Under the pieces are notes generated by a model. That model was given only the letters and a program-made list of their open reading frames with translations. It was not told where the DNA came from and did no database searches. 64,000 nt of DNA. Source: Candidatus Uhrbacteria bacterium RIFOXYB12_FULL_58_10 (lineage in GTDB: Bacteria; Patescibacteriota; Patescibacteriia; UBA9934; GWF2-40-263). The DNA lies in NCBI GenBank assembly GCA_943359455.1, contig CALRHL010000002.1:7665-71664 (forward strand), read 5' to 3'. The number at the start of each line of letters is the position of its first letter. Positions within the stretch are counted from its first letter, which is position 1. This document shows, piece after piece, positions 3,963-48,738 of this stretch. The position numbers and the translations under genes are program-made.

Positions 3963-4394
3963 ATGCCGAATACCAATATCGAACAACTTATTTCATTGAT
4001 TATTACCACCACTCGTCTTATTCGGGAACACACTAAACATCGAGAAAAAATTGATCCCCTTTCCTATCTTCAATTGGGAACGCTTCGTTATGTGGCTGAA
4101 AAAAACAACCCACCCATGAAAGATGTTGCCGACCACCTCTGCATTACCCCTCCTTCCGCAACTTCTCTCATCAACAATTTGACAAAAATGAAGCAGCTTG
4201 AACGCATCTATGATAAAGATGACCGCAGACTTATCAGGCTTGCTATTACTGCCAAAGGCAGGAAAACGCTTGAGGATGGGTTTAAGAAAATAACAATACG
4301 AATGCAAAGAGTGTTAAGCAAGCTCAGCGAAAAAGAAAGAAGCGATTTTATTAAAATCCTGGAAAAACTCTCCCGCGCGTATAGTAATAAATAA
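3963..4394 (+). CDS. MarR family transcriptional regulator
   Basis: 143 aa with a winged-HTH MarR-like pattern (LSYLQLGTLRYVAEK...DDRRLIRLAITAKG), immediately upstream of the efflux operon. Confidence 0.75.
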   Translation: MPNTNIEQLISLIITTTRLIREHTKHREKIDPLSYLQLGTLRYVAEKNNPPMKDVADHLCITPPSATSLINNLTKMKQLERIYDKDDRRLIRLAITAKGRKTLEDGFKKITIRMQRVLSKLSEKERSDFIKILEKLSRAYSNK

Positions 4395-4399
4395 TTTTA

Positions 4400-6151
4400 A
4401 TGAAGATTATGATCCAAGTTCCAAAAAGACCAATTATTATTGTGTTACTCGTCATTGTTCTTGGAGGAGTTATTGGTAGTTACATCTATTTCGGCGGGGA
4501 CAGCGCTCTGGCATATGATTTTATTGTCGCTGAAAAACGTGACCTCGTTCAGGACGTAAGTGTCACGGGACGCGTTAAGCCGGCAGAGAGCGTTGATCTT
4601 GCATTTGAGAAAAGCGGAAAAGTTGCACTGGTCACTGCGAATATCAGTGATAAGGTGAGGCCTGGCCAAATACTTGTCACTCTTGAAAATTCAGAACTCT
4701 TGGCGGAACTCTCCCAGGCAGAAGCCGGAGTGGAGAGTGCTGAAGCCCAACTTAAGCAATATCAAGCATCTGTTGAAACGGAGCAGGCAAGCCTTGCCGA
4801 ACTGGAGCAAGGTACAAGGCCTGAAGAAATACAAATTGCAGAAACAAAAGTTTCAAATGCGCAAAATTCAGTTGAAGATGCGGAACTGAACCTCAATAAT
4901 GTACAAAGTAAAGCTAGTAACGATTTAGTAAATGTCTATGGAGACACCATGGATATATTAAATGATGCATATACCAAAGCAGATAATGCCTTGCATGCTC
5001 AAATTGACGAGATGTTTAATAATGATGATGGTAGTAGTCCTAAATTGACCTTCATAGTAACTAATTCCCAAGCTGAGATTGATGTAGAATTGCAGCGGTT
5101 CATTGCAGGAAATGAACTGGAGGATTTTAAGGTGGAACTAGACACTTTTTCAACTTCTGACTTCCCATCACTTGACCAAGCACTTGTAAATGCAGAAGGT
5201 CATTTAGTTATTATTAGGGATTTTCTTAATCGTCTTGGTGACGCAATAAATAGTTCTGCTGGGATATCTTCAAGCACGGTCAGTATATACAAAAGCAACT
5301 TGAATGTAGCGCGTGTCAATGTCAATACAGTTATCTCCAATAGTAACAACCAAGAACAAATTATTGCTACACAAAAGGAAATCAACCAGAGTAGTGTCAC
5401 TACTGCTGAAGCTCAAGTTAACGATGCTCAATATGCTCTCTTGTCCGCAGAAACAGAATTGACTCTCAAAAAAGCTGGTTCAACTCTCGAGCAAATTACT
5501 GCCCAAAAAGCACAGGTTGAACAAGCCGAAGCCAATGTCACCTCTCAGGAAGCTCAAATAAAGCAAACGAAAGCAAATGTCCAAAACATCGAAGCGCGAC
5601 TTTCAAAAACAATCGTTTACTCACCAATCAATGGAATCATTACAACACAAGACGCTAAAGTTGGTGAGATAGTTTCTGCCAACACTATTATTGTTTCTCT
5701 AATTTCAGAAGCAAAATTTGAAATCGAAGCCAATGTGCCGGAAGCGGATATCGCAAAAGTAAGCGTGGGTAACACCTCGTTGGTTACGCTTGACGCCTAC
5801 GGCAGAGATGTTGTTTTTGAAGCGAAAGTGGTTGCTATTGATCCAGCGGAAACCATTGTGGACGGCGTTGCAACCTACAAAGTGACATTTCAATTTACCA
5901 AAGAGGATGAGCGCGTTAAGTCAGGAATGACCGCGAATATCGATATCGCAAGCGACCGCAGGGTAAATGTTATTGCTGTGCCACAGCGATCCATCATCAG
6001 GAAAAACGGAGATAAATTCGTAAGAATATTAAACAGTGAAGATTTTGAAGAGGTAAAAGTAGAAACAGGGCTCCGCGGTTCTGATGGAAATATTGAGATT
6101 ATAAAAGGAGTCAATGATGGTGACAAAGTAATAACTTTCAGCGAAGAATAG
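4400..6151 (+). CDS. HlyD/MacA-family efflux periplasmic adaptor subunit
   Basis: N-terminal TM segment, long coiled-coil (repeated AELSQAEAGVESAEAQL-type heptads), C-terminal beta-barrel region. Confidence 0.8.
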   Translation: MKIMIQVPKRPIIIVLLVIVLGGVIGSYIYFGGDSALAYDFIVAEKRDLVQDVSVTGRVKPAESVDLAFEKSGKVALVTANISDKVRPGQILVTLENSELLAELSQAEAGVESAEAQLKQYQASVETEQASLAELEQGTRPEEIQIAETKVSNAQNSVEDAELNLNNVQSKASNDLVNVYGDTMDILNDAYTKADNALHAQIDEMFNNDDGSSPKLTFIVTNSQAEIDVELQRFIAGNELEDFKVELDTFSTSDFPSLDQALVNAEGHLVIIRDFLNRLGDAINSSAGISSSTVSIYKSNLNVARVNVNTVISNSNNQEQIIATQKEINQSSVTTAEAQVNDAQYALLSAETELTLKKAGSTLEQITAQKAQVEQAEANVTSQEAQIKQTKANVQNIEARLSKTIVYSPINGIITTQDAKVGEIVSANTIIVSLISEAKFEIEANVPEADIAKVSVGNTSLVTLDAYGRDVVFEAKVVAIDPAETIVDGVATYKVTFQFTKEDERVKSGMTANIDIASDRRVNVIAVPQRSIIRKNGDKFVRILNSEDFEEVKVETGLRGSDGNIEIIKGVNDGDKVITFSEE

Positions 6152-6152
6152 T

Positions 6153-6872
6153 ATGCCGCTCATCGATGTCAAAAACATAGGAAAAACCTATTACAACGAT
6201 CGTGTGGAAACACATGCTCTTCGTGATGTGTCTTTTGAAATTAACGAGGGAGAATTCGTTGCTATCATGGGGCCTTCGGGATCAGGCAAATCAACCTTGC
6301 TTCATATCTTGGGTTTCTTGGACAGACACACCAATGGAAAGTACCGCTTTGACGGCAAAACCATTGACGACTATTCAAAAGAAGAAATTGCCCATGTACG
6401 AAATAAAAAAATGGGGTTTGTTTTTCAATCATTCAATCTGCTTGCAAGAACGACCGTTCTTGAGAATGTAAAACTGCCGCTTCTCTATTCTGACGTTAAA
6501 AAATCTATGCGCGACGAGATCGCGCTCAAAGCCATTGAGTCAGTGGGGCTTTCTCATCGCATCAGTCACGAATCCTCTCAGTTGTCAGGTGGCGAAAAAC
6601 AGCGCGTAGCAATCGCCAGAGCGCTAGTGAATAAACCCAATGTAATATTTGCAGACGAGCCAACGGGCAACCTTGATTCTAAATCAGGAAAAATGGTAAT
6701 GGAGTTTATTCAAAAACTGAATGAAGAAGAAGGGCATACTATTATTCTAATTACCCACGAAACCTATACTGCTGAACACGCCCAGCGAATTATTAGAGTC
6801 CTCGACGGCAATATAGAAAGTGATACAAAGGTAAATCACCGCCACAGGGCTCGCGATCATTTTGAGAAATAA
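6153..6872 (+). CDS. ABC transporter ATP-binding protein (MacB-type)
   Basis: Walker [13 protein letters not shown] signature [15 protein letters not shown], Walker B IFADEPT. Confidence 0.9.
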
Positions 6873-34596: not shown

Positions 34597-35601
34597 ATGT
34601 TCCAAAAGAAAATCGCTATCGACCTTGGTACGACCTCTGTCCTCGTTTATGTCCCGAAACGAGGTATTATTATCAATGAACCATCTGTAGTTGCGGTGTC
34701 GTATGCGGACAAGAAAGTATTGGCAGTGGGGAAGGAAGCAAAAGACATGATTGGTCGCACACCAGACACGATTGTTGCTCGTCGACCACTGAAAGACGGC
34801 GTCATTGCCGATTACCGAACAACCGAAGCAATGCTTCGTTATTTTATTAATAAAGCATTAGGAGGAGTACGTTTGTTTCGTCCTGAAGTGATGGTTGCGG
34901 TCCCTGGTGGAATTACTTCAACAGAACGTCGTGCAGTTATCGACGCGACACTTTCCGCTGGAGCTAAAGCCGCGTACATCATCAAAGAACCAATCGTTGC
35001 CGCGATCGGCGCAAACATTCCAATCGGCTCTCCGTCTGGTCACATGATTATCGACATTGGTGGTGGAACATCCGAAATGGCCGTCATCTCACTCGGTGGA
35101 ATAGTGGCGTCTGAGTCTGTTCGCATCGGGGGCGTAAAACTCGATGCCGCGATTTCCGAATACGTTCGTCGCAAGTACGGTCTCGCGATTGGAGAACGAA
35201 CCGCCGAAGATATCAAAATTCAAATCGGTTCGGCGATGTACATGCCGGACAAACTTTTCATGCAAATTAAAGGACGAGACATGATTACAGGCCTACCAAA
35301 AATCGTCGAAGTCTCATCCGACGACGTCACGACCGCCATCCAACACGAACTCGACGGTATTATCGCCACCGTAAAAGAAGTGCTCAACAAAACCCCACCA
35401 GAACTGTCTGCAGACGTCATGGACAAAGGCATCATGCTCTCTGGTGGCTCGTCTCAACTCAGAAATCTTGATACACTTATCGCCGAAGCCACCGGCGTCC
35501 CAACATTCGTCGCCGAAGATCCACAAATGTGTGTGGCAAAAGGAACCGGCATCGCACTTGAGAATTTGGAAGCGTACAAGAGATCGATTTTTACGAGTTA
35601 G
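34597..35601 (+). CDS. mreB: Rod shape-determining protein MreB
   Basis: IAIDLGTTSVLVY phosphate-1 motif, actin-fold motifs throughout, 334 aa. Confidence 0.92.
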   Translation: MFQKKIAIDLGTTSVLVYVPKRGIIINEPSVVAVSYADKKVLAVGKEAKDMIGRTPDTIVARRPLKDGVIADYRTTEAMLRYFINKALGGVRLFRPEVMVAVPGGITSTERRAVIDATLSAGAKAAYIIKEPIVAAIGANIPIGSPSGHMIIDIGGGTSEMAVISLGGIVASESVRIGGVKLDAAISEYVRRKYGLAIGERTAEDIKIQIGSAMYMPDKLFMQIKGRDMITGLPKIVEVSSDDVTTAIQHELDGIIATVKEVLNKTPPELSADVMDKGIMLSGGSSQLRNLDTLIAEATGVPTFVAEDPQMCVAKGTGIALENLEAYKRSIFTS

Positions 35602-35613
35602 AGTTCCTTCTGT

Positions 35614-35886
35614 ATGGGGGATTTTTCACAACGAGATACAGGACACACGGTGTTCGATGCGAGAGCGCAAGCAACTCGTCCTCTTGATGTTTTTGGGATC
35701 CATGAAAATCCACCGAAGGCACGTACACCGCAGGAAGTCGCACGACTAAAAGAACGCATTGTTTTTATTGCTCGCGTGTTTGCGAGACAATATAAAATGG
35801 AGCTCTACCCATCGCCAAGTGGTGGATGGGCGTGTGGAGTGGATGAGAGCGTTTATCCAAAAATTGAAGCATATATTAAAGGATAG
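35614..35886 (+). CDS. 90-aa ORF in frame with the downstream vWA gene, separated only by a TAG at 35884-35886
   Basis: Same frame as 35965..37935. The 78 nt after the TAG are open and encode TDVLGLTTEDLQPRRLYYDIKDIEGK before the listed Met. Confidence 0.4.
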   Translation: MGDFSQRDTGHTVFDARAQATRPLDVFGIHENPPKARTPQEVARLKERIVFIARVFARQYKMELYPSPSGGWACGVDESVYPKIEAYIKG

Positions 35887-35964
35887 ACGGATGTATTAGG
35901 TTTAACGACAGAAGACCTTCAACCGCGACGACTGTATTACGATATCAAGGATATTGAAGGGAAG

Positions 35965-37935
35965 ATGTCGGAGGATGAAGCCATTGGTGTCATTCGGCAC
36001 GAAGTAGGACATGCGAATCACACCGATTATCGGTTGTTTTTTGAAGGTCAACGTTTCGCACAACAAGAAGGATCCATGCCAAGTGCATGGGCATTTGTGT
36101 GGAATTCGCTCGAAGACCCATGGGTGAATAATCGTGAAATTGCCGGATCTGATGCGGTGCGAGAAAGTTTGTCTGCGTTGTATCGAAAGTGGCTTCCGGA
36201 AACACGCGCGTTTATTCATACGCAAACGCCATTGCGTCAACTTGGTCTTTGCGTGATTCATTATTGGTTGACAGGTGAACCTATTGCTGAAATTCAAGAT
36301 AAAAAGGTGTTGGAAATTTTTGAAAAGATTCGTTCTGCGGCGGATGCGTATATCGCAGCGGAGACCGCAGAGAAATCGCACAAAGTGATGCAAGAACAGA
36401 TCTGGCCAGCAGTAAAGCCACTCGTTGACGAGGCGCAAAAACAGGAAGAGATGAAACAGAAGATGCGAGAGATGGGTGGTGAGGGACAGGGAGGAGCGCA
36501 AGGTGCCGTGCAAGGCGCGATTGATAAACTTCGCAACATGCTTGGGCTTGGTGGATCGAAACCTGCTCCATCGTCTGGACAAACACCCGGAGGTGAGTCA
36601 CTTCAACAAGCTGTTCGAGATGAACTGAATCGGCAAAAAAACTCGAACACGGAGGCACGGCAAAAACTTTCGCAGGAAGGTTCTGCGCAAGGACGCATGG
36701 ATGATGAGATTGACCTAAGCGCACTTCCTAAAGATTTGCGAGAACAACTTGAACAGGCTATTCGTCAGCTGTCGGAAGCGGATCGGAAAAAATTAGAAGA
36801 TGCGGCGAAGAAATCACTCGACAAAAAAATGGCAAAGGCGGCAAATGAAAGTTTACCGACTGGTTTGAAGTTTGAAGAAGATCCAAAAACAGGGGAGCAA
36901 ACGCTCACCATGAAGCAGGAAGACAAGAAGGGGGGGGAAGCGATCAAGAAGGCGGTCGATGAGCATGTGGATGCGCAAGTGCAAGAAGAGCAGAAAAAAG
37001 CAGTGGAGGACGCTCGTGCAGATGAGGAACGGCTTGCACAGATTCGTGAGGAAGAAAAAAAGAAACGCGAGCGTGCCGAGATACAAAAGGCCGGGTTTGA
37101 TCCAGACAACGAGGAAGATCGCGAGCTCTATCGCGAGTTTCGCGCATTGGAGCTTTTCATGGAATCCGCGGTGCAACGATTTATGAAGGTTATGGAAGCC
37201 TATCTGCCAAAGCGCGGAGAGATGGTGCATGAAGGGGAATATTACACGGGGAGCAAGATAAATAAGCGGGCATTGTTAAAGCGGGCGCCGCTTGAGGATT
37301 ATCGGATATTTCGTCGTCGCGAACTGCGGGAATCAAACGATCCGAAACTGTTTGTGACACTGCTTATCGATAACAGCGGCTCCATGCAAGGACAAAAAAT
37401 GCAGGAGTCTCGCAAAACCGCGATCTTTTTCGCGCGCGTGCTTGCGAGGTTTGATATTCCGTTTGCCATCAAGGCATTCGGCGATCAGGTGGAAGAAGTG
37501 GTATCATTTGACGAAGGATGGGACGATCCAACCGTAAAAGCCAAACCACGTCTCATGCGAAAGACAAACGCGTCGGGCGGTTCCACCGACATGGCGTCCG
37601 GGCTATTGGAAACCATGAAAGAAATGAATTCTGCCAAACGCGAATATCCCGGATGTCACGGAGCGGTGATCGTGATCTCGGATAGCGGCGCAAATGCAGG
37701 CCCCATGGTCGGGCCCGCACTTGGCGAGTATGTATCGCGCATGCAAAAATCGCACACCATTTTGAATTTGTTGTTGAGCGGTTCCGCTTCCGACAAACAG
37801 GCCTCCGCCGTCATTTTCGGCGAACGACATGTCGCGGTTGCCGAAGATTTTCAAACGCTCCCAACCGAAGCGTTTCGACTCCTGCGCATCGTCTTACAAC
37901 GCATCCTTAAAACAAACATCCTCGAAACGTTTTAA
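35965..37935 (+). CDS. vWA (MIDAS) domain protein with N-terminal HExxHxxH zincin-like motif and a long charged low-complexity linker
   Basis: HEVGHANH at aa 12-19. E/K/Q-rich coiled/low-complexity middle. C-terminal vWA with intact MIDAS (LIDNSGSM ... SGGSTDM ... VISDSGANAG). Confidence 0.75.
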   Translation: MSEDEAIGVIRHEVGHANHTDYRLFFEGQRFAQQEGSMPSAWAFVWNSLEDPWVNNREIAGSDAVRESLSALYRKWLPETRAFIHTQTPLRQLGLCVIHYWLTGEPIAEIQDKKVLEIFEKIRSAADAYIAAETAEKSHKVMQEQIWPAVKPLVDEAQKQEEMKQKMREMGGEGQGGAQGAVQGAIDKLRNMLGLGGSKPAPSSGQTPGGESLQQAVRDELNRQKNSNTEARQKLSQEGSAQGRMDDEIDLSALPKDLREQLEQAIRQLSEADRKKLEDAAKKSLDKKMAKAANESLPTGLKFEEDPKTGEQTLTMKQEDKKGGEAIKKAVDEHVDAQVQEEQKKAVEDARADEERLAQIREEEKKKRERAEIQKAGFDPDNEEDRELYREFRALELFMESAVQRFMKVMEAYLPKRGEMVHEGEYYTGSKINKRALLKRAPLEDYRIFRRRELRESNDPKLFVTLLIDNSGSMQGQKMQESRKTAIFFARVLARFDIPFAIKAFGDQVEEVVSFDEGWDDPTVKAKPRLMRKTNASGGSTDMASGLLETMKEMNSAKREYPGCHGAVIVISDSGANAGPMVGPALGEYVSRMQKSHTILNLLLSGSASDKQASAVIFGERHVAVAEDFQTLPTEAFRLLRIVLQRILKTNILETF

Positions 37936-37942
37936 TATTCGT

Positions 37943-40900
37943 ATGCCAGACCCAGCCCGTGGACAAACACCTCCCCAGGACCAGGAACCGGTTCGCGACC
38001 GGGATGCGGTTGAAGTTAAAATCACCGTCCAACCACCAGAGGTGTTTGAAGGAAACGAAAAGGCAATCACCTACGATATCGCCGTCACCGATAAATTCGT
38101 TCTCGCCTATCAGTTGCGTGATCAGTTTTTTCAGTACGTGCTTTATGACGCAACTGGGAAGCCAGTCAAAGACGAGTTTCCCTCGGGTTTTTTTGAAAAG
38201 TTTTATACATCGAAAGTGCTGGAAATAGCTCAAGGTTCAATGAGAGGACTGGGGTCCATCTATCCATCACATCAGAATCTAAATGAAGTGAGTTACAAAT
38301 CAATCAATATTTTTATTAAAAAAATATTTCCTAGTTTTTCGGATGAACAGATACGTTTTTTGATAAAAAGATTTGATTCACGATTTCCTAATGGTTACCA
38401 ATGCAACACAGACGTTGCGTCTGATCGTAATTTCATCCTATTTTATCCTCAAGTTTCAATTTCTTCGGATTCAACTCGAAAAGTATTTGTCCTGTCTGAT
38501 GGTACAAATGCCGTAAGCTATCCAACAGAAGAAAAAGGGGTTGCGATAAATCCAAAAAAAATGGATGAGGGATGTTATCCCTTTAAGCTCGATGCAAGCC
38601 CGATTGGGGAGGCTGCGGCGGTAAAGGAATTTTTAACAACCACGCGCGGGACGCCAGTTCCTGGAACGGATGTTGCCGCGAGTTGCGAGCGTGGAGTGTT
38701 TAATATTGTGAATGTGAAAACGGGGGATCGGTTGTTTTCTGATTCTGCGGTTGGTTTTGTGTTTGATCGGGTGACGGATGGAGTCTTGTATTATCTTGAT
38801 CAAGGAACGAATCAAGTTTGCAAAATGGATGCAAAAAAACTGACGCTTGGAATGGCGCCGGATGTGGAGAGGACTGTTTTACCGTTTCAGGGGATCGTGA
38901 AAGATTTTACTTTTGATCAGAACGGGAATTTTTTTCTTGTGCTCGTTGAGGTGGCGGGGAAATCAACGCTCAAGGTTTTGGAAAAAGATACCATGCGCGT
39001 GGCGTATGAACTTGAGGGGGTGAAATCCACGATGGATTTGGATAGCGTTGGGAATCTGTATTTTATTGATGAGAAGGATCGTCTCCGTTTGGCAAATACG
39101 AATTTTGCGGAATACCCGAAAGGCGGACTTGAAGGAGCGCGTGCGAAACGGACGGAAAAGTTACGGTTATTACGAGAGCGATTGGAAAAGGGGATTAATA
39201 TTAAAAAGACAACCCCGGCCGCGGATGAGGAAACCGCGCTGATCGATGAGCTGAAACAAAAACTGGATGGGATTTTTGGGACGGCGATTCAAGACGCGAC
39301 GACAACCGACGAACTGAATGCGATCGGGGCGCAGATGGAATCAATGGCAAAAGAGGATGAATGGAAGGCGTATCCTTCGGTATTTGACAGGGTAAAAGAT
39401 CGGTTGGTTGCTCGCGACACGCAGATGAAAACAGATCGACTGGACACATTGGCCGTCGAAGCAGAGACCCTGCTTGATTCTGTGTCAGGACCAGACCAAT
39501 TGATGGATCTTGATCGGATCGTATCGGAATTACGGGCGACTCGTCGGACGACTCCACTGCGCGACGCGAAGGCTCGCAAGGCGGTTGACGAACGATTGAA
39601 ACAGATCGAAATGCGTCAGGCAGAAGTGATTGCGCGCGAGCGAAAAACGATTCAAGATTTGCTCCCGTCGTTGTTTGATGAATGGAGCGCCGCTGTTCGT
39701 GAATCGGCGACACGCGAAGAGCTGACCGAAATGCAAGGCTCGCAGGAAGCGCTCCGACTGGAAGGAGCATTCAGTTTGCTTGGTCGCGAGACTGCTTCCG
39801 AATGGAAAGGGAAGAGACAAGAAGTGATCGCGCGAAGAGAAACGGAATTGCGCTCAGCGGAAATGCGCGAGGAAGAACAGCGTCGGGTGGAGCAAGCCGA
39901 GCGGGTGGAGCAGGCTCGAGAACTTCTGCGCGAGATTGAATCTGCGTTTGACACGCAGGTGACTGATCCGCGCGTGATCGATCGCTGGCTTTCTGGAAAC
40001 CCGCTTGTCAAGCGGTTTCGTGCGGTTGTGGTCGGACTTCCTGATGATTTGCGGCGCGATGAAGATCAACGGTTTGAAACATGGCTGAAGGAGAAGCGAC
40101 GTGATTTTATTCATCGCGACACTCTGCACATTCCCAAACATGGGGAAGAAGTCGATTTTGGGGAGGCAAAATTTCCGGTGTTTCATGCTCCCAAAACCGT
40201 GTGGCGACCAAAGATCGAATCCATTGCCGAAGGAAGCGCGTTCGGTCGGCTCGTGTTCGAAGATTCGTTTGGTCGTCGGTTCGAACCAGCGGTTGGCGCG
40301 GTGCCGATCGATGAGTTTAACGAAGACACGCAGGCAACGATTCGCGCCTTCGAACAAAACGCTCGGACATTTTTCGACGCGCTCAAACGAGAAGTTCCGC
40401 GGTTTGACGAACGGTGGGTGCTCACTCCGCATTTTCGATCAGAACTTTCCGGCATCGCGCGGTTGTTCAAAACTCAAATGGAAAATCAGGAAAAAATTTT
40501 GATTTTGGAAGGGGAAGCAGGCGTGGGAAAAAATGTGCTCATTGATATGTTTGCGCATTTTACCAATCGCGAAGTGTTCACCTTCTCTTGCAATTTTCAG
40601 ACGGAAAAGGAAGATCTCACATACGCGTTCAAATTTGAACCATCGCGTGGAACGTACACAGTGGACTCGCGACTGATCACCGCGCTTCAAACTCCTGGTT
40701 GTGTGATCATGCTTGATGAAATCAACACCCTTCCGCCTGGCGTCACCAAAATGCTCAATCCATTATTCGATTATCGACGCTGTCTGAATTTACCAGACGG
40801 TCGCGTGATTAAAACGCATCCAAGCGTTTTGCTTGTCGGGGCCATGAACCCACAAAATTATCTCGGGGTTAAGCCGCTTGCACAGGAAGTAAAGTCGCGC

Positions 40901-41344
40901 GCGCGGTTTAAGCCAGTGGATTATCCACCAGAGCGTCGCAATAATGCCTTTGCCCATGATGAAGCGGCGGTGCTCGCGAAATACATCCCCGGACTTTCCG
41001 ATCTTTCCGCGGAGGCATTTGCCGCGCTTTGGGATCTCACGATCAATAACAATCGCACGGCTGGCGGTGATCGTCATGCAACCGCTCCACGGGTGGAAGC
41101 ATGCAAAAAATTGCGCGAAATTATAAAAACCGCTTCTCGTGTTCGTGATGCCTATCGAGCATTTCGCACGGGTGCATCCAATGACCCGATCGAGTTTGTA
41201 TTTTCCATGCGCGAAACAACCGACATTGCGCTTGAAATTGCGCATCAGCCTAACTTGAAAAAAGCGATTCAGAATGTTGTTCTTCCAAAAATTGGCGATC
41301 CGGAGGAACGAGAACGCGTGAAGGTGATAATTGATAATGCGTAA
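37943..41344 (+). CDS. Giant MoxR-like AAA_5 ATPase (1133 aa): N-terminal beta-propeller-like region, ~400-aa coiled coil, C-terminal AAA_5 module
   Basis: AAA_5 core at about aa 855-1010: Walker A GEAGVGKN (non-canonical N after K), Walker B VIMLDEIN, sensor-1 LLVGAMNP. The listed ORF starts at 37829 and overlaps the upstream gene; the Met at 37943 lies 8 nt after the vWA stop. Confidence 0.75.
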   Translation: MPDPARGQTPPQDQEPVRDRDAVEVKITVQPPEVFEGNEKAITYDIAVTDKFVLAYQLRDQFFQYVLYDATGKPVKDEFPSGFFEKFYTSKVLEIAQGSMRGLGSIYPSHQNLNEVSYKSINIFIKKIFPSFSDEQIRFLIKRFDSRFPNGYQCNTDVASDRNFILFYPQVSISSDSTRKVFVLSDGTNAVSYPTEEKGVAINPKKMDEGCYPFKLDASPIGEAAAVKEFLTTTRGTPVPGTDVAASCERGVFNIVNVKTGDRLFSDSAVGFVFDRVTDGVLYYLDQGTNQVCKMDAKKLTLGMAPDVERTVLPFQGIVKDFTFDQNGNFFLVLVEVAGKSTLKVLEKDTMRVAYELEGVKSTMDLDSVGNLYFIDEKDRLRLANTNFAEYPKGGLEGARAKRTEKLRLLRERLEKGINIKKTTPAADEETALIDELKQKLDGIFGTAIQDATTTDELNAIGAQMESMAKEDEWKAYPSVFDRVKDRLVARDTQMKTDRLDTLAVEAETLLDSVSGPDQLMDLDRIVSELRATRRTTPLRDAKARKAVDERLKQIEMRQAEVIARERKTIQDLLPSLFDEWSAAVRESATREELTEMQGSQEALRLEGAFSLLGRETASEWKGKRQEVIARRETELRSAEMREEEQRRVEQAERVEQARELLREIESAFDTQVTDPRVIDRWLSGNPLVKRFRAVVVGLPDDLRRDEDQRFETWLKEKRRDFIHRDTLHIPKHGEEVDFGEAKFPVFHAPKTVWRPKIESIAEGSAFGRLVFEDSFGRRFEPAVGAVPIDEFNEDTQATIRAFEQNARTFFDALKREVPRFDERWVLTPHFRSELSGIARLFKTQMENQEKILILEGEAGVGKNVLIDMFAHFTNREVFTFSCNFQTEKEDLTYAFKFEPSRGTYTVDSRLITALQTPGCVIMLDEINTLPPGVTKMLNPLFDYRRCLNLPDGRVIKTHPSVLLVGAMNPQNYLGVKPLAQEVKSRARFKPVDYPPERRNNAFAHDEAAVLAKYIPGLSDLSAEAFAALWDLTINNNRTAGGDRHATAPRVEACKKLREIIKTASRVRDAYRAFRTGASNDPIEFVFSMRETTDIALEIAHQPNLKKAIQNVVLPKIGDPEERERVKVIIDNA

Positions 41345-41347
41345 TGT

Positions 41348-42418
41348 ATGTCTACGATTGCGATTGATGAGAGTTCGACGAAAAAGGTAAATCGTTCTGG
41401 GGTTGAATGGTATGCGTACCATCTCATTGAGGCGATTAAGAAACAGTCGCTTGCAGATGGCGAGAAGGTTGTTTTTTATTCTTCGGAGAATTTGAAATGG
41501 TGGTTGCCGTTTGGATGGATGAAGGGGAGAGTGAGTTGGGAAATGTGGCGACGGAAGCCAGATGTTCTTTTCGTGCCTGCGCAAGGACTCCCATTGTGTG
41601 GGAAGCGAGTGGGGGTTGTCCATGACGTGGGATTTCGGCGTGTTGCGTCGGTGTATGAATCAGGTGATAGACGACGACAGGAAAGAGAGATGAAACGCAT
41701 GGTGAAACGTGCGGCGAAGATTTTTTGTGTTTCGGAGTTTACGAAGAGAGAGATGATTGAGCTGTTTAAGGTGAGTCAGGATCGGATCGTCGTTGCTCCG
41801 AATGCGGTGGATACCAATGTGTACCGTCCGATGGACGAATCTGCGATTGCTCCGGTGTTACAGAAATATCGTCTTGGACGGCATTTTTTCTTGTATGTTG
41901 GACGCATGGATGCAAAGAAAAATGTGAAGACCATTATCCGCGCGTTTGAGCTGTTCAAAGCAAGTCGCGGGCTTGGAGATCCGTTTGAACTCGTCCTTGT
42001 TGGCTCACCCGGATTTAAATTTTCTGAAATCAAAACGTATGTTGAACGGTCAAATGCGAAACAAGCGATCAAGTATCTTGGCTATCTTCCTGAAACAGAA
42101 AATGCTGCTCTTATGAATGCAGCGACCGCGTTTCTTTTTCCATCTTGGTACGAAGGGTTTGGTGTTCCTCCCCTTGAAGCCGCCGCATGCGGCGCGCCAC
42201 TCATTATTTCTGACATCGGTGCGCATCGAGAGGTTTTGCAAGACGCGGCGATTTTTGTGAAACCAACTGAACCAGAAGCTTGGGGAAAAATCCTTATGCA
42301 GTTCGCGGCAGATCCTTCAATCGGACAAGCCTTGCGACCGAAAGGATTTGAGCGTGCCGCAGCATATTCCTGGGATGCGACTGCAAAGATTGTTTTGGAA
42401 ACGTTGCGGCGGGTGTAG
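41348..42418 (+). CDS. Glycosyltransferase family 1/4 (GT-B)
   Basis: C-terminal EGFGVPPLEAAACGAPLI motif of GT4 enzymes. Confidence 0.8.
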   Translation: MSTIAIDESSTKKVNRSGVEWYAYHLIEAIKKQSLADGEKVVFYSSENLKWWLPFGWMKGRVSWEMWRRKPDVLFVPAQGLPLCGKRVGVVHDVGFRRVASVYESGDRRRQEREMKRMVKRAAKIFCVSEFTKREMIELFKVSQDRIVVAPNAVDTNVYRPMDESAIAPVLQKYRLGRHFFLYVGRMDAKKNVKTIIRAFELFKASRGLGDPFELVLVGSPGFKFSEIKTYVERSNAKQAIKYLGYLPETENAALMNAATAFLFPSWYEGFGVPPLEAAACGAPLIISDIGAHREVLQDAAIFVKPTEPEAWGKILMQFAADPSIGQALRPKGFERAAAYSWDATAKIVLETLRRV

Positions 42419-42424
42419 ACATGG

Positions 42425-43002
42425 CAGGGGTCCTGGGATGTACAGATCGGATACAGTGGTACAGATATACAGATGTACAGATGTGAAGAGTTGTTTATTG
42501 ACCTGTTCGGATCAGCACATCTGTATATCTGTACTTTTTCTGTACATCCCGTAACAACGAATCCGTATGGAGTTTGTTTATCAAGACCTGAGTTATAAAA
42601 TAAACGGAGTTCTATTTGAAGTTTATAATGAATTGGGTCCTGGATTAAAGGAAAACACTTATCAACGAGCGATTGCAGTTGCCTTATCACACACTGGCCT
42701 CAAGTTTAAGGAACAGGTATACTTTCCATTGAGGTTTAAAAATGAAGTTGTAGGATCACTCTATTTTGATTTCTTGATTGATGAAAAGATCGTTCTCGAA
42801 TTGAAAGTTGGTGAGTATTTTTCACGAAGGAATATAGAGCAAGTTCATCAGTATTTACTCTATTCAGGTTTACATCTCGGACTACTTGCAAACTTCACTC
42901 TTCACGGAGTGAAAATTAAACGCGTCGTCAATTTACAAAATAAATAATCAAATCTGTACATCTGTATATCTTGTACAGATCTGTACATCCCAGGACCCCT
43001 GC
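42425..43002. mobile_element. MITE-like 578-bp element with 24-bp perfect terminal inverted repeats carrying a GxxExxY gene
   Basis: Left TIR GCAGGGGTCCTGGGATGTACAGAT (42425-42448). Right TIR is its reverse complement (42979-43002). Internal GTACAGAT micro-repeats. Confidence 0.7.
42567..42947 (+). CDS. GxxExxY family protein (PD-(D/E)xK-like)
   Basis: GVLFEVYNELGPG matches the GxxExxY signature; 126 aa. Confidence 0.7.
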   Translation: MEFVYQDLSYKINGVLFEVYNELGPGLKENTYQRAIAVALSHTGLKFKEQVYFPLRFKNEVVGSLYFDFLIDEKIVLELKVGEYFSRRNIEQVHQYLLYSGLHLGLLANFTLHGVKIKRVVNLQNK

Positions 43003-43785: not shown

Positions 43786-43946
43786 GAGACCTCTGCAAAA
43801 GTCCAGCACGGCTCCAAATCGGCCATCTTCGCACTGGACACATTCACGATTCCTCAATGATATCTGCATATCACCTCGAAATCGTTCATGTGCCCAGTAC
43901 GAATCTGACTCGATTTGGCCTCGTACTGGACTTTTGCAGAGGTCTC
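43786..43946. mobile_element. 161-bp MITE-like element with 25-bp TIRs (1 mismatch)
   Basis: GAGACCTCTGCAAAAGTCCAGCACG ... CGTACTGGACTTTTGCAGAGGTCTC. Nested inner IR CCAAATCGGCC/GGCCAAATCG-like. Solo TIR at 12133-12150. Confidence 0.65.
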
Positions 43947-44048
43947 TTAGAAATAAAAAACGGCTCATGCGTTTTCTTTTCGCTGAGAGCCGTCGAGGAG
44001 AGAGAGGTACGTGCAGAGGCGTACCTTTTTTGGGGAGGAGGATTCGAC

Positions 44049-44483
44049 CTAGAATTGTACGGGAATGAACGTACGCGGATCTCGATGTCGGAGTAGTTCG
44101 AGCAAACCGCTCACGGGTGCGCACCCGGGACCGAGGAAGCCGAGATGCATTCCGATTTCTTGAGACTGATTCTCGCCATGGACATACAGCGCGGTTCCTT
44201 CTTCGTCCCCTGGCTCGGCTACTTCGCGAGCAGGGATTCGAATTTTGGTCCAGTCGAGCGAGCTGTCGGCATCCTTCGATCCAGTCTCGGATCGATTGGT
44301 CGCTTCGCCGTCGTCCATCTCGGACGAGCACATCGACCAGATTGGACTGCCAGCCGTGTCGTCGGCGTCGGCGTCGGCGTCGTCAAGGTCGCGGGAACTG
44401 TCCGTGTCGACCGATCGGGGTGGGGATCCGTCAAGTTGACGGGAACGATTTTCCGGAACAAGTCCGGCCTGTAGAAGAAACAT
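44049..44483 (-). CDS. Hypothetical acidic protein (144 aa), high-GC island
   Basis: GGAG 6 nt upstream of ATG. D/S/E-rich disordered N-half. Confidence 0.45.
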   Translation of the reverse strand: MFLLQAGLVPENRSRQLDGSPPRSVDTDSSRDLDDADADADDTAGSPIWSMCSSEMDDGEATNRSETGSKDADSSLDWTKIRIPAREVAEPGDEEGTALYVHGENQSQEIGMHLGFLGPGCAPVSGLLELLRHRDPRTFIPVQF

Positions 44484-44865
44484 GTTGTACTCCGAGTAAT
44501 CGGAGAACGACCTGCTTCTGTTTGAGGCATCTGCATGCCGTCCTCCTTGTCACTCTCTACAATGTCCTCCCCCAAGATCGACGAAGTTCACCGTAGCGAG
44601 GACGCACTGTATCAAAAAGCCTAGGATTTGTCAAGGTCATTGGAGGTCTAATCCAGCTAGCTCTGACAGATAATTTCTCCAATTTCCCTTTTAATTCCAT
44701 TGATTTATCTAATTCTGTCCCAGATAATCTGGCTCTACTTGACAAATCTTTCCATTTCCATTACTCTTGTCAGTTCCCAAAACCCTCTGGGTATATGACT
44801 GGAGGGTCTTGGGGGCACAAATGAACTATTCAGACAGGGGAGAGACCCAAAGAGAGCTCTGCAAA

Positions 44866-44895
44866 GCAAAAATCCGCCTTATGGCGGATTTTTGT
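44866..44895. terminator. Rho-independent bidirectional terminator (AAAAATCCGCC-TTAT-GGCGGATTTTT)
   Basis: Perfect 9-bp GC-rich stem with flanking A/T tracts; similar to 58297-58322. Confidence 0.7.
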
Positions 44896-45312
44896 TGAGG
44901 GGAGAGACTCAGTGGGTGTAACCACGAGGTTTATCCCACATGTTCGGAGGCAAGGGATGCAGTGACTTCTCTTGCGAGGAGTGTGCACCATGGTTGTCGG
45001 GCGTATGGGGGGAGTCAGACCTAGGTCCGAGTCCACACATTTGGCAACCCCCGATTCAGTGTTTTAAAGCACCGAACCGGTTTGCTCTCTCCTCCGAGCA
45101 TGTGAGAACCTCCTCACTACGAATTTTTTCTGAGATTTTTTCTGCGAATAACGAATCGGCTACACATCTTACAAATAGCTACGTATTACTACGAATGGTT
45201 CGTTGAAATTTGTTGCTATTTGTATGATATGTGGGAGATTTGTAGTTCGCAGGAAAAATTCGTAGTGAGGGGGTGGGGAAGAGCTCGTGTTACGAGATTC
45301 CCCAGAGTCGGT

Positions 45313-45621
45313 TTACGCCGCGTACTGTCGCGATGCACGAGTCGTGTCTTTCCACGACTTGGTTTGCTGGGGCGACGGCAAGAACCAGTTCGAAACGGTC
45401 ATGCTTTCGGTAACCGTGTTGCCACCTGCGATGACCCCGCTGTCGTAGTGCTCGACGTACGACCGACGCTGCGGCTCAGGCACGAGCTTCACTTCGATTT
45501 CACCGGGACGTGAGTCGCTCTGACAGATCATCGTTCTCGAACGTGCGACGATCGAGCCGTCACCGATCTTCAGAGGACGGCACGAGCCGTCGAAACCGCG
45601 CCAAGAGCTGATTCGGGACAT
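45313..45621 (-). CDS. Hypothetical protein (102 aa), high-GC island
   Basis: AGGAG 4 nt upstream of ATG at 45621. The longer listed ORF 45313..45966 probably extends spuriously upstream. Confidence 0.45.
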   Translation of the reverse strand: MSRISSWRGFDGSCRPLKIGDGSIVARSRTMICQSDSRPGEIEVKLVPEPQRRSYVEHYDSGVIAGGNTVTESMTVSNWFLPSPQQTKSWKDTTRASRQYAA

Positions 45622-46049
45622 GAATCTCCTTTCGCCTATCGAGAGGCGAGTTGTTGGGTGAGGGTGGAAGAAATGATCGTGATGGGAACGTAGAACAACG
45701 CTCCGATCATGAGAGAGAACACGACCGCGATTCCCGCGAACGTGAGGATGGGCTATTTCAGCGATGCCTTTGCGTCCCGGAAATATGGGGAGCGGTGTGG
45801 TGTGGCAGTCGCCTTGCTCTGCACAGCGTGATTGCTTTGCAGTACTGACTAATGGAGTTCGCTTTCTGTCGCGACCTCCTCGAAGGGTTGGATAATTGAT
45901 CCAGCGCTTTGAGGAAGTCTGGGTTACTAGCGGAGTTCCGCGTTCACCCAGCAGTCCATTTGTCATTGACCTCCATGACGAGGAGCATTCTCTTGAACCA
46001 CGTGCGAGACGTGATCACGGGGCTTATGCACAAACCCGTTCGAGAAGAA

Positions 46050-47207
46050 TTACTTCTTCTTGCCTTTGGCCTTGTCCGCTTGACGATCACGCTTCGATTT
46101 GGAACCGCCGGATTTCTCCGACTGCACCATTCCGGGCGTGACTTCACGCGCCTTCTTGAAGGCTGCGTCCAGTCCACCGAAACCTTCGAGCTTTCGCCCG
46201 TCGTCTCGCGGCTTGGCCGGAGCCTGCACTTGCGGTGCGGCCTTCGGCGGATCCTGACGCTTGGGAGCGTTCGAGTCCGTCCTCCCGGCGATCTTGGCTT
46301 CGCGGAAGAGTCCGCCGATCTTTCCGCCACCTTCGATGATCTTGTTGATGTTTGCTTCGGACTCAGCTTTCGCCTTGGCCGCCATCGCCTTGATCGCCTC
46401 GAGCAGGGGGAACCACCTGTAGCTTGTGTCTCGACTCGCGAGTTGGCAACCCGCGACGGAGATGAGTTCCTCACGGGTCGGATCGCGGTCACCGATCCCG
46501 AGCTTCTGCTGGACCGGGAAGATCGGTGGAACGAACGCATCCACCAACCGGATCTGGTGTGTCTGGCATCCTTTCGCCGTACACGTCACCATCTCCTCCG
46601 GCGGTTGCTCCTTCTTTGGGGGAGCCGAAGGAGGCTTTCCACCACCACCGTTCTGGGTTCGCGACGCAAGCGCCGCGATCGCCAGACTCCGGACGGCATC
46701 TTGGATGCTCGGCCGGCTCGGGGTCGGAGCGGGTTGCTCGATCGAGGCCACGGTGACCACTTCTGCGACCACCACCGATTCCTCCGGCATTTCGATCGGG
46801 GCCGAAGCTTCCGCCTCGTCCTCGATGAAACGTGCCGGGGCCTGTTCGGATTCGAGGAGCTGGACGCCAGTTTCCTCGGCTGCGGCCTCGATCACGATCT
46901 CGGCCACGGGGGCCTCGATCCTGGCCGCCGCCGCCATTTGCTCGAGCCGATCGGATGCCGCCTTGCGGTCGGCGCGATACACTTCGAGCATGGATTGAAT
47001 TTCCTCGATCGGAATCTCGAGAAGCTTCGTCCTTCCGCGGATCTCCTCGTACTTGACGAGCAGACCGGCTTTCTTGAACTCACTCCGAAGCGCGGCTCGA
47101 TCCTGCCGTACGTTGCCGTGTGCACTGAGTGCAACGACTCCGCTACGGATTTCTTCGCGACGCTCTTCGACACTGCTCGCAGAGCGAGCTTCAGATTCGT
47201 GCAACAT
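46050..47207 (-). CDS. Hypothetical protein (385 aa) with lysine-rich C-terminal tail, high-GC island
   Basis: AGGAG 6 nt upstream of ATG at 47207. Plus-strand ORFs over the same DNA are R/L-rich antisense artefacts. Ends ...KSKRDRQADKAKGKKK. Confidence 0.6.
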   Translation of the reverse strand: MLHESEARSASSVEERREEIRSGVVALSAHGNVRQDRAALRSEFKKAGLLVKYEEIRGRTKLLEIPIEEIQSMLEVYRADRKAASDRLEQMAAAARIEAPVAEIVIEAAAEETGVQLLESEQAPARFIEDEAEASAPIEMPEESVVVAEVVTVASIEQPAPTPSRPSIQDAVRSLAIAALASRTQNGGGGKPPSAPPKKEQPPEEMVTCTAKGCQTHQIRLVDAFVPPIFPVQQKLGIGDRDPTREELISVAGCQLASRDTSYRWFPLLEAIKAMAAKAKAESEANINKIIEGGGKIGGLFREAKIAGRTDSNAPKRQDPPKAAPQVQAPAKPRDDGRKLEGFGGLDAAFKKAREVTPGMVQSEKSGGSKSKRDRQADKAKGKKK

Positions 47208-47685
47208 GGTGGACTCCTACGGGGGGCACTCGTTTGGACAGTTGTTCCCGAGCTTGGGATTCAGCTCGCACTCGCGAGCTTACAGAACTGTGGCGCTTCG
47301 TCCTTGACAGCGCTTCTTTGAAACACGAGCGTTCAGCTCCTGCATCAGAGAAGCGCGGGGACTCCTTCACCCTCTTCCGCCGTCAATACTCCCACACGAC
47401 TCTTGCGAGCCAGGAGGATTTTCGACGGAGGAAGAGGATGCTGATCAGAGTTGGGATCAGCTCCAAGGGTTTATCGTTCTTGCGAACATTCGGTACCCCT
47501 TACCGTTTGATGGCTTCAGTTTCGCGTGCCATCGGTGAGCTTGGAGACAGTCTCTTACGAGACGGAATCATGCTCGACGCAGCGTGTCCGGGTTACAACC
47601 CTACGATCACGACTTTGCCAGCGGAAGGAGCTCGTCTCCCTCTACGCTGGCCTGACTCGGTTCCGAGAGAACGGTTACGAAGGTT

Positions 47686-48111
47686 CTACCCCTCCGTCCC
47701 CGTCGACTCGACCACCTGCTCGGCGGGGGCGCTCGTCGCCACATTCGCCGCCTTGGCCGCGTCCTGTTCCGCCTTCCACTTCTGGTCGGCGGCGCGGGCT
47801 TCCTCGAGGCGTCCGCGGAACTTTGCGAGGTCTTCCTGCGCGGTACGGAGCTGTTCGCAGACCTGGTACTTCGTGACACGAATGCCACGGTTTTGGCAGT
47901 CCGAGAAGTTCTCGCGCGCGATCCGTTCCTCGTTGCCACAACGGCTTTCGAGGGCCGAGTCGAGGATGCTCGTGAAGAGGATCACAGACTCGGGGGAGCC
48001 CACGATTTCCTTCCGCGAAAGGTTCACCAGGACGCCACCGAAGTGACGAATGGCGGCCTCGACAACATTGCGCTCGTTCTTGCCAATCCAGACAATTTGG
48101 GTCGTTTCCAT
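47686..48111 (-). CDS. Hypothetical protein (141 aa), high-GC island
   Basis: AGGAG 8 nt upstream of ATG at 48111 (METTQIVWIGKNERN...). Confidence 0.5.
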   Translation of the reverse strand: METTQIVWIGKNERNVVEAAIRHFGGVLVNLSRKEIVGSPESVILFTSILDSALESRCGNEERIARENFSDCQNRGIRVTKYQVCEQLRTAQEDLAKFRGRLEEARAADQKWKAEQDAAKAANVATSAPAEQVVESTGTEG

Positions 48112-48738
48112 GGTGAAAGCTCCTGTAGTGGCGTAATCGACGGAGTGTCGAATAGTGGCCAGAGCGGGATGGATGCCTTTTACAGACATACATTCCGCTC
48201 TGGCCTACTTATCCTCACCAACCTAGAGGCGTGGTGAGACTCGGTTTCTAGACGTGCAAGCACGGTTCGAATCGAGTCTCTTGGATCCAGTTGGTATGCA
48301 CTGAGTTAGCCGAGGCCAAGGCAGTGCATTTAGGACCCACATCTTCCGCGGCCCGAGGGCGTAGGAAGAATGTTTATCTCTCTCCTCCAGGTTGCTAGGG
48401 ATAAGAAGTAGTTGGGGGGGGTGGAACAAAAAACCGGTTTCTGTACGTATCTAAAGAGAGACGTGTACAAAAACCGGTCTTTCTGCCGTTGGGCGCGGGC
48501 AGGCGCGTTCTCTCTCCCCATCAATTGTGAGAGCCACATGATCGCTTCGTACGATCAGGTAACCCACTGCAATCTATCGGAGAGTAATAGTATCATAATT
48601 TGGTGGAATTGTCAAGAGTGGAGTGTGGATTCTGTGCTAGGTTGACAGAAATATAAGTGTCAGGATGAGCTGGAATAGATAAGGTTTGAAGGGTCGGATG
48701 GTCGGAGGTTTAATGAGACGTGTTATAATCCTTCCGAT

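Follow-up and report, generated by a model that had tools for sequence, protein, structure and literature searches.

An accessory HExxH-vWA gene downstream of mreB in a Candidatus Uhrbacteria genome is divided by one in-frame amber codon, probably a lineage-specific nonsense allele

Directly downstream of mreB in the genome of Candidatus Uhrbacteria bacterium RIFOXYB12_FULL_58_10, two open reading frames (ORFs), 35614..35886 and 35965..37935, raise the question of whether they are two genes or one gene that has been cut by a stop codon, and, if one, what the stop does. Positions are those of the window, i.e. the whole 64,000-nucleotide stretch of contig CALRHL010000002.1 (assembly GCA_943359455.1) that was analysed. 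The first ORF begins 12 nt past the mreB stop codon and consists of 90 codons and a TAG, and the second consists of 656 codons and a TAA. Inspection of the sequence confirmed the original prediction that the two share a frame (both starts equal 1 modulo 3), that TAG 35884-35886 is the only in-frame stop between them, and that the 78 nt (26 codons) after it, 35887-35964, are open; this segment carries no in-frame ATG, GTG or TTG before ATG 35965. The putative metal-binding motif HEVGHANH lies close behind that ATG, its first histidine being residue 12 of the 656-residue ORF. Given that a shared frame is expected by chance in one of three cases (1/3) and that 26 random codons stay open with a probability of ~0.29, the geometry of the ORFs is by itself weak evidence of one gene, and homology is the decisive test.

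Searching a word-indexed protein collection with the N-terminal 287 residues of the fused translation, we found a single relative, P0001, a partial protein of a Patescibacteria metagenome-assembled genome (MAG), which matches residues 20-271 of that translation in one unbroken alignment (E = 3e-92, 52% identity) and carries Glu in the column of the TAG (YMKGEIPS vs YIKG*TDV). A HMMER search over 1.84 billion representatives, for which the query was the pair of the window translation and P0001, extended the family to 79 homologs, most of them 700-930 residues long with one stretch across the TAG site, while the 90-residue and 656-residue products of the window appeared as separate partial matches. 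Alignment of P0001 and 22 full-length proteins of 700-929 residues across the site revealed that all of the full-length homologs (22/22) are continuous there and that none of the 23 carries a stop in this column; the full-length proteins hold Glu (7), Gln (6), Lys (4), Asp (2), Asn (2) or Thr (1), and the three commonest of these residues have codons that are one base away from TAG. The open segment between the ORFs, residues 92-117, bears the family motif F/L-x-P-x-x-I/L-x-Y-D. The nearest full-length homolog, P0004, has 777 residues vs 773 of the fused ORF, and Met118, with which the 656-residue ORF starts, is an ordinary internal residue common to the two closest homologs (EGKM in P0001 and P0004). 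Because a single ORF of the homologs corresponds to the N fragment, the 26-codon gap and the C fragment together, we conclude from the alignments that both ORFs are one ancestral gene of 773 codons, and the suggestion that the 116 codons upstream of the second ORF belong to the same domain as the HExxH motif held up, the homologs spanning all of these parts. Homologs that start naturally at the equivalent of Met118 would have spoken for two genes. The short family members that we traced (P0057, P0058, P0070 and P0043; P0062 was left out, as it is not on record) did not qualify: P0057 is an artefact of start calling, P0058 is truncated by a contig end, and P0070 and P0043 are decayed copies. 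No naturally split homolog was found among those traced.

The predicted structure places the stop within this domain. In an AlphaFold2 model that covers residues 1-285 and draws on 24 sequences (mean predicted local distance difference test score, pLDDT, 88.7; predicted template modelling score, pTM, 0.82), a disordered N terminus, helix 39-57, strands 63-66 and 73-75 (with the GGWAC motif) and helix 78-88 lie within the N fragment; a loop, 89-105, holds the TAG, and strand 106-109 and helix 111-117 follow, encoded by the open segment. The HExxH helix (120-136) and a further helix (156-176) with the invariant pair E167-D168 come next; the invariance and helix placement of this pair make it a candidate third metal ligand. 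According to the model, none of the elements ahead of the HExxH helix, i.e. the first helix, the three beta-strands and the two short helices, is encoded by the 656-residue ORF, in agreement with the earlier argument that the motif stands too near the N terminus of this ORF for a folded zincin. In the full-length model (pLDDT 80.5), a long, charged linker, helical or disordered, joins the HExxH domain to a C-terminal vWA domain, to which Pfam assigns VWA (E = 3.3e-8), VWA_2 and CobT_C (25.1 bits) and for which the best Foldseek matches in the PDB are the NorD vWA domain in NorQD complexes (E = 8.9e-9) and the MIDAS (metal ion-dependent adhesion site) domain of Rea1/MDN1.

The description of the N-terminal domain as a zincin stood in part. 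The HExxH residues are invariant, and the predicted topology resembles minimal gluzincin/M48-like domains, i.e. a backing helix, a three-stranded sheet, the HExxH helix and a later helix with an invariant Glu, suggesting that the domain may be a zincin peptidase. Peptidase_M48 appeared around the motif in 8 of the 24 members, below threshold (best E = 0.013, 14.8 bits vs a cut-off of 20.3), and a local match to Ste24p was seen at the HExxH domain. Unlike those minimal domains, this one has extra helices and lacks a significant match, by sequence or by Foldseek, to a solved zincin (best E > 0.3): a profile search of the PDB gave E > 1 and Foldseek against the PDB gave E = 0.37 at best, and neither Pfam, NCBIfam, PADLOC, PDB sequences nor Foldseek returned a significant match for the HExxH domain. 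HExxH domains with other chemistry exist, an example being 8s5f, which is among the weak matches.

Whether the TAG is a true feature of the genome was examined in other records. The exact 656-residue product is encoded on five contigs from NCBI, ENA and Logan, and both ORFs are recorded in these three collections. A contig of the Logan assembly of ERR3719144 (L001), which occurs in two samples, shows no difference from the window over 12,146 nt, and an NCBI MAG contig (L002, GCA_943354615.1) is identical across the whole gene including the TAG, so that region 35614-37935 is base-for-base the same in both. L002 differs from the window at three positions, all within the last 43 nt of that contig; these mismatches look like contig-end artefacts, and we rejected the idea that L002 represents a diverged strain bearing the TAG. 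An intact 773-residue allele is not on record according to the word-indexed search, HMMER, the cluster look-up and the scan of metagenome contigs. Nor did closer relatives emerge: the word-indexed search returned only P0001 and the scan of genome contigs only the contig encoding it, the scan of metagenome contigs returned nothing, and the cluster look-up returned singletons. A random sequencing error, one of the explanations first offered, is unlikely because two other assemblies bear the identical TAG. More broadly, an artefact of sequencing or assembly that conceals a sense codon at 35884 is in our judgement very unlikely; all of the data are metagenome assemblies, and the mismatches near the end of L002 show that assembly noise exists, but, besides the agreement of the assemblies and the lack of an intact allele, a substitution outside a homopolymer is an atypical consensus error.

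We then asked whether TAG is read as an amino acid in this organism. TAG terminates 16 of the 57 long ORFs in the window, and the next gene often follows closely, in several cases within 1-20 nt. The base after the TAG at 35884 is A, and TAG followed by A is common among ordinary terminators of the window, being the most common TAG context. The neighbouring mreB, which served as a control, itself halts at TAG at 334 residues, a length common to most of the 120 homologs listed. These data answer the proposed check on TAG as a normal stop and indicate that TAG is an ordinary terminator in this genome. The tRNA genes of the window are those for Thr, Tyr, Thr and Trp only; neither a tRNA with a CUA anticodon nor another suppressor tRNA was found within its 64 kb, and a scan of paired open stretches over the same 64 kb gave no convincing case of a second gene split by a single in-frame stop, whether TAG or another. 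Unusual structure was not seen in the RNA 3' of the TAG (z = -1.13), nor was a promoter-like site found on the plus strand between the two ORFs. A change of genetic code or a dedicated recoding, in which TAG specifies an amino acid such as pyrrolysine or is suppressed genome-wide, has the open frame as its sole support and is extremely improbable in view of this stop usage, the tRNA scan and the scan for interrupted genes, which effectively refute it for the 64-kb window; moreover, homologs hold Glu, Gln or Lys at the site and no conserved special residue. Programmed read-through, stop-codon read-through being one of the alternatives in the original prediction, likewise gained no support, given that its mark, a stop conserved at the same position in orthologs, is missing from the homologs.

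As to initiation, visual inspection of the 25 nt upstream of each of 49 gene starts revealed no obvious Shine-Dalgarno-like motif; many genes start right at the preceding stop or overlap it. Initiation in this genome thus appears to be independent of Shine-Dalgarno sequences, and the presence or absence of such a site before Met118 is uninformative because gene starts here show no such motifs.

The explanation that we consider probable is that the locus holds a lineage-specific nonsense allele of an accessory HExxH-vWA gene, an incipient pseudogene whose HExxH domain is disabled. Of the alternatives named at the outset, a nonsense mutation fits best a TAG that is a terminator in this genome and homologs that have no stop in its column. 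The ancestral product would have consisted of an N-terminal, gluzincin-like HExxH domain, a charged linker and a C-terminal vWA/MIDAS domain, and would have acted as an adaptor for the ATPase of the AAA_5 type that is encoded immediately downstream. Codon 91, which is Glu, Gln or Lys in most relatives, would have turned into TAG in this lineage. Since TAG is an ordinary terminator here, ribosomes would be expected to release a 90-residue fragment at this codon, and basal read-through or reinitiation at Met118 would supply at best small amounts of downstream product. A product started at Met118 would lose the first helix, the three beta-strands and the two short helices, and therefore the function of its HExxH domain is most likely lost. 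The locus resembles in this respect nonsense-disrupted genes described in other bacteria (PMC7918605, PMC9122581) in having a single in-frame UAG, an accessory ORF supported by homologs, and open, conserved flanks.

To judge the age of the lesion, we compared conservation along the gene, measured as the mean BLOSUM score per column of the window sequence and of each of the other 23 sequences. None of the 28 family-invariant residues, among them HExxH, E167/D168 and the MIDAS residues, has been lost from the window copy. For residues 37-90, 20 of the 23 other sequences score below the window, and for residues 118-270 18 of 23 do so, while for residues 92-117 just 3 of 23 score below it, the ratio of this segment to the C block being 0.59 vs a median of 0.77 (range 0.54-1.39). 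This low value for residues 92-117 hints at relaxed constraint but is not significant, and it lies within the range of intact members. The simplest reading of the retained invariant residues and of the intact partner gene is that the mutation is recent.

Broken copies of the gene occur elsewhere in the family. By checking short matches to a profile of the N domain we found two. In one (L014: a contig of 163,457 nt in GCA_943356485.1, positions 4001-6297) the homologous HExxH-vWA gene is called as ORFs of 99 and 666 residues in different frames; a tblastn comparison with P0033, an intact relative, placed the frameshift at about 4250-4273, some ten codons past the column of the window TAG. This nearness may be a sampling effect, as it is expected by chance in ~8% of cases. 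The other (L015: ENA ERZ27293342, a contig of 1,614 nt, positions 1-1291) is a relic of the two-gene module: its linker contains a TAA, the codon of the near-invariant Trp in GGWAC is TGA, and a deletion has removed the vWA domain together with most of the ATPase, so that the N domain runs in frame into the final ~70 residues encoded by the AAA_5 gene. It is possible that the organism of L015 reads UGA as sense, in which case its TGA would not be a stop.

Several points weigh against a plain nonsense allele. The other assemblies that bear the TAG may share source samples with the window or be related to them; they exclude a random error and not an allele specific to one population. Conservation of the N fragment matches that of intact homologs and the C-terminal ORF has no further lesions, features that fit a recent mutation and continued expression equally. 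Purifying selection is reported to act frequently on in-frame stops of bacteria (PMC7918605), and UAG pseudogenes of Salmonella are reported to give low levels of full-length protein (PMC9122581). One possibility is that the stop is leaky or regulated, near-cognate read-through supplying little but sufficient full-length protein and the stop attenuating the expression of a potentially costly module. All three segments are open and family-like with every invariant residue kept, and UAG is the stop most often read through among Salmonella pseudogenes (PMC9122581). C is the favoured neighbour in that study, whereas the +4 base here is A, as in ordinary TAG terminators of the window, and the host is an uncultured Patescibacteria bacterium. 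With no stop in any of the 23 aligned homologs, no downstream RNA structure, no suppressor tRNA in the window, and residues 92-117 somewhat less family-like than expected, we regard a leaky stop as quite unlikely.

Another possibility is that the split is functional, i.e. that translation restarts at Met118 to yield a 656-residue linker-vWA adaptor for the AAA_5 ATPase while the 90-residue piece is discarded or acts in trans. The vWA/MIDAS domain, the linker and the partner gene, which starts 8 nt past the C fragment, are intact; Met118 is merely 78 nt from the stop, and initiation that does not depend on a Shine-Dalgarno motif would permit such a restart. A conserved N fragment together with a less conserved gap is also the pattern expected of a stable split, but the difference in conservation is not significant (3 of 23 lower). 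Met118 is not a dedicated start in the two closest homologs, and a reinitiated product would lose strand 106-109 and helix 111-117 together with the conserved family motif that they carry, so the HExxH domain would not be rebuilt from the two pieces. As no traced homolog is naturally split, and the only other two-ORF copy, that of L014, is due to a frameshift in an ORF that is intact in P0033, we consider a functional split unlikely. Highly unlikely in our estimate is a further reading, in which selection keeps the amber codon as a conditional switch that normally holds a costly HExxH-vWA effector at a trace level or splits it into the 90-residue piece and a vWA-only adaptor. If it were so, full-length protein would be made only when UAG termination is weakened, e.g. 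upon limitation of RF1 or by the suppressor tRNA of an invading element, and the two other broken copies, that of L014 lying ~10 codons from the equivalent site, would reflect repeated selection turning the HExxH domain down and not random decay. The 90-residue and 656-residue 'hypothetical proteins' on record in NCBI, ENA and Logan are pieces of a single gene and should be annotated as a disrupted HExxH-vWA gene. Under the nonsense reading, which we prefer, the locus is one more case in which an accessory cassette of a small Patescibacteria genome is in early decay, and no new decoding phenomenon.

Table 1. Coordinates of the interrupted gene, its parts and its neighbours in the window. Residues are numbered on the fused translation, the TAG being codon 91.
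Feature	Position	Strand	Remarks
mreB	34597..35601	+	Pfam MreB_Mbl E = 5.8e-133; stops at TAG; control for TAG termination
Two-gene cassette HExxH-vWA + AAA_5	35602..41347	+	~5.7 kb, between mreB and a GT4 glycosyltransferase gene
N fragment	35614..35883	+	codons 1-90 of the ancestral gene; from the ORF list; aligns to P0001 residues 22-91 and to all full-length homologs
In-frame amber codon TAG	35884..35886	+	codon 91, right after near-invariant Gly90; in predicted loop 89-105
Open gap segment	35887..35964	+	residues 92-117; encodes predicted strand 106-109 and helix 111-117; translated only if the TAG is read through
C fragment	35965..37935	+	annotated 656-residue ORF, codons 118-773 and TAA
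HEVGHANH motif	35998..36021	+	H129, E130 and H133 invariant in two family alignments; on predicted helix 120-136
E167-D168 (LEDPW motif)	36112..36117	+	invariant columns; on predicted helix 156-176; candidate third metal ligand
C-terminal vWA domain	37354..37863	+	DNSGS at 37369-37383, invariant T658 and D690; MIDAS motif intact
AAA_5 partner gene	37943..41344	+	1133 residues; AAA_5 (MoxR/NorQ/CobS-type) at residues 853-986; Pfam E = 2e-23; intact

The interrupted gene and its partner form a cassette that is not a fixed part of this locus. The best matches of MreB (90-95% identity) are named Candidatus Uhrbacteria, and three relatives (L007, L009 and L010) carry the genes for GT2, DUF4012, MreB, GT4 and TrmB in that order at this locus with the cassette absent between mreB and the GT4 gene; in blastn comparisons with these relatives, homology ends at window position 35583-35604, depending on the relative, and resumes at 41379-41513. 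The same gene order, HExxH-vWA and then AAA_5, is conserved in unrelated neighbourhoods in L004, L005, the P0005 locus, L013 and L014, and the neighbouring genes differ between these loci. The cassette was either gained by this lineage or lost by its relatives, and its distribution suggests that it behaves as an accessory, mobile module. Only short repeats at chance level flank it, and tblastn against 50,697 phage records gave no match that would point to a phage origin.

The partner protein aligns end to end with its 1141-residue counterpart in L004 (39% identity). Its N-terminal extension of ~840 residues (window 37943-40498, residues 1-852) has no Pfam domain, its first 420 residues gave no match in the word-indexed search, and the extension could be aligned to nothing but the module partners of L004, L013 and L005 (20-35% identity). 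PHROGs gave weak CobT-like and CobS-like matches for the module proteins, and PADLOC gave no match for the module. We define the module as a HExxH-vWA protein of 700-930 residues followed by an AAA_5 protein of ~1110-1160 residues; it has 79 representatives at the 50% cluster level and, as judged from the loci compared here, is sporadically distributed and sometimes decayed.

Like the pairs NorQ-NorD, CbbQ-CbbO and CobS-CobT, the module joins an AAA_5 gene to an adjacent gene whose C-terminal vWA domain has an intact DxSxS...T...D MIDAS. Unlike in those pairs, the vWA gene comes first and has an N-terminal HExxH domain outside any Pfam family, the ATPase bears the long N-terminal extension, and no gene for a client enzyme (nor, cbb or cob) lies nearby. 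By analogy with MoxR-class ATPases and their vWA adaptors (reviewed in PMC7159879), the ATPase is likely to remodel what the vWA/MIDAS domain binds. The module is uncharacterised, yet recognisable as a variant of the AAA+/vWA theme (MoxR/NorQ-like), and is a possible target for the study of MoxR-type remodelling systems in candidate phyla.

A further comparison is with the MoxR-vWA ternary conflict systems, in which rare metallopeptidase effector domains are fused to the vWA component (Kaur, Burroughs, Iyer and Aravind, eLife 2020; PMC7159879). The module shares with them the core of a MoxR-type ATPase and a vWA protein as well as a patchy, accessory distribution. In those systems, the effector domains are C-terminal to vWA and the third component is VMAP, iSTAND, FtsH or a beta-propeller (PMC7159879), whereas here the HExxH domain is N-terminal to vWA and just two genes are conserved across loci. 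With no third component and the extra domain N-terminal, the module falls outside the definition of these systems, and we did not assign it to them.

Some minor observations concern the surroundings of the module. A terminator-like hairpin with a T-run (TCCTTCTGTATGGGGGA TTTTTCACAA) lies at 35605-35631, right after mreB, and the ATG of the N fragment falls inside it; a functional hairpin there would limit transcription into the cassette. Upstream of the HExxH-vWA homolog P0057 stands directly a reverse-transcriptase gene (RVT_1; L006:702-1814), and the true start of P0057 is ATG 1736 in L006, giving 657 residues and not the 611 called. At L013:5180-6878, the module adjoins a Fic gene and a PhD/ParE toxin-antitoxin pair, surroundings that are typical of accessory or defence islands. 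Further along the window, a PDDEXK_3 gene between the GT4 gene and the TrmB gene (42,567-42,947) is missing from L007 and L009. The region 43,800-48,300 has a GC content of 0.53-0.61 vs 0.41-0.50 elsewhere in the window, returned no Rfam match, and holds overlapping ORFs in all frames, none of them convincing. The longest of these are 45909..47321 (+) and 46050..47207 (-), the latter of low complexity and rich in K, A, E and P, and the region may be foreign DNA or an unusual gene.

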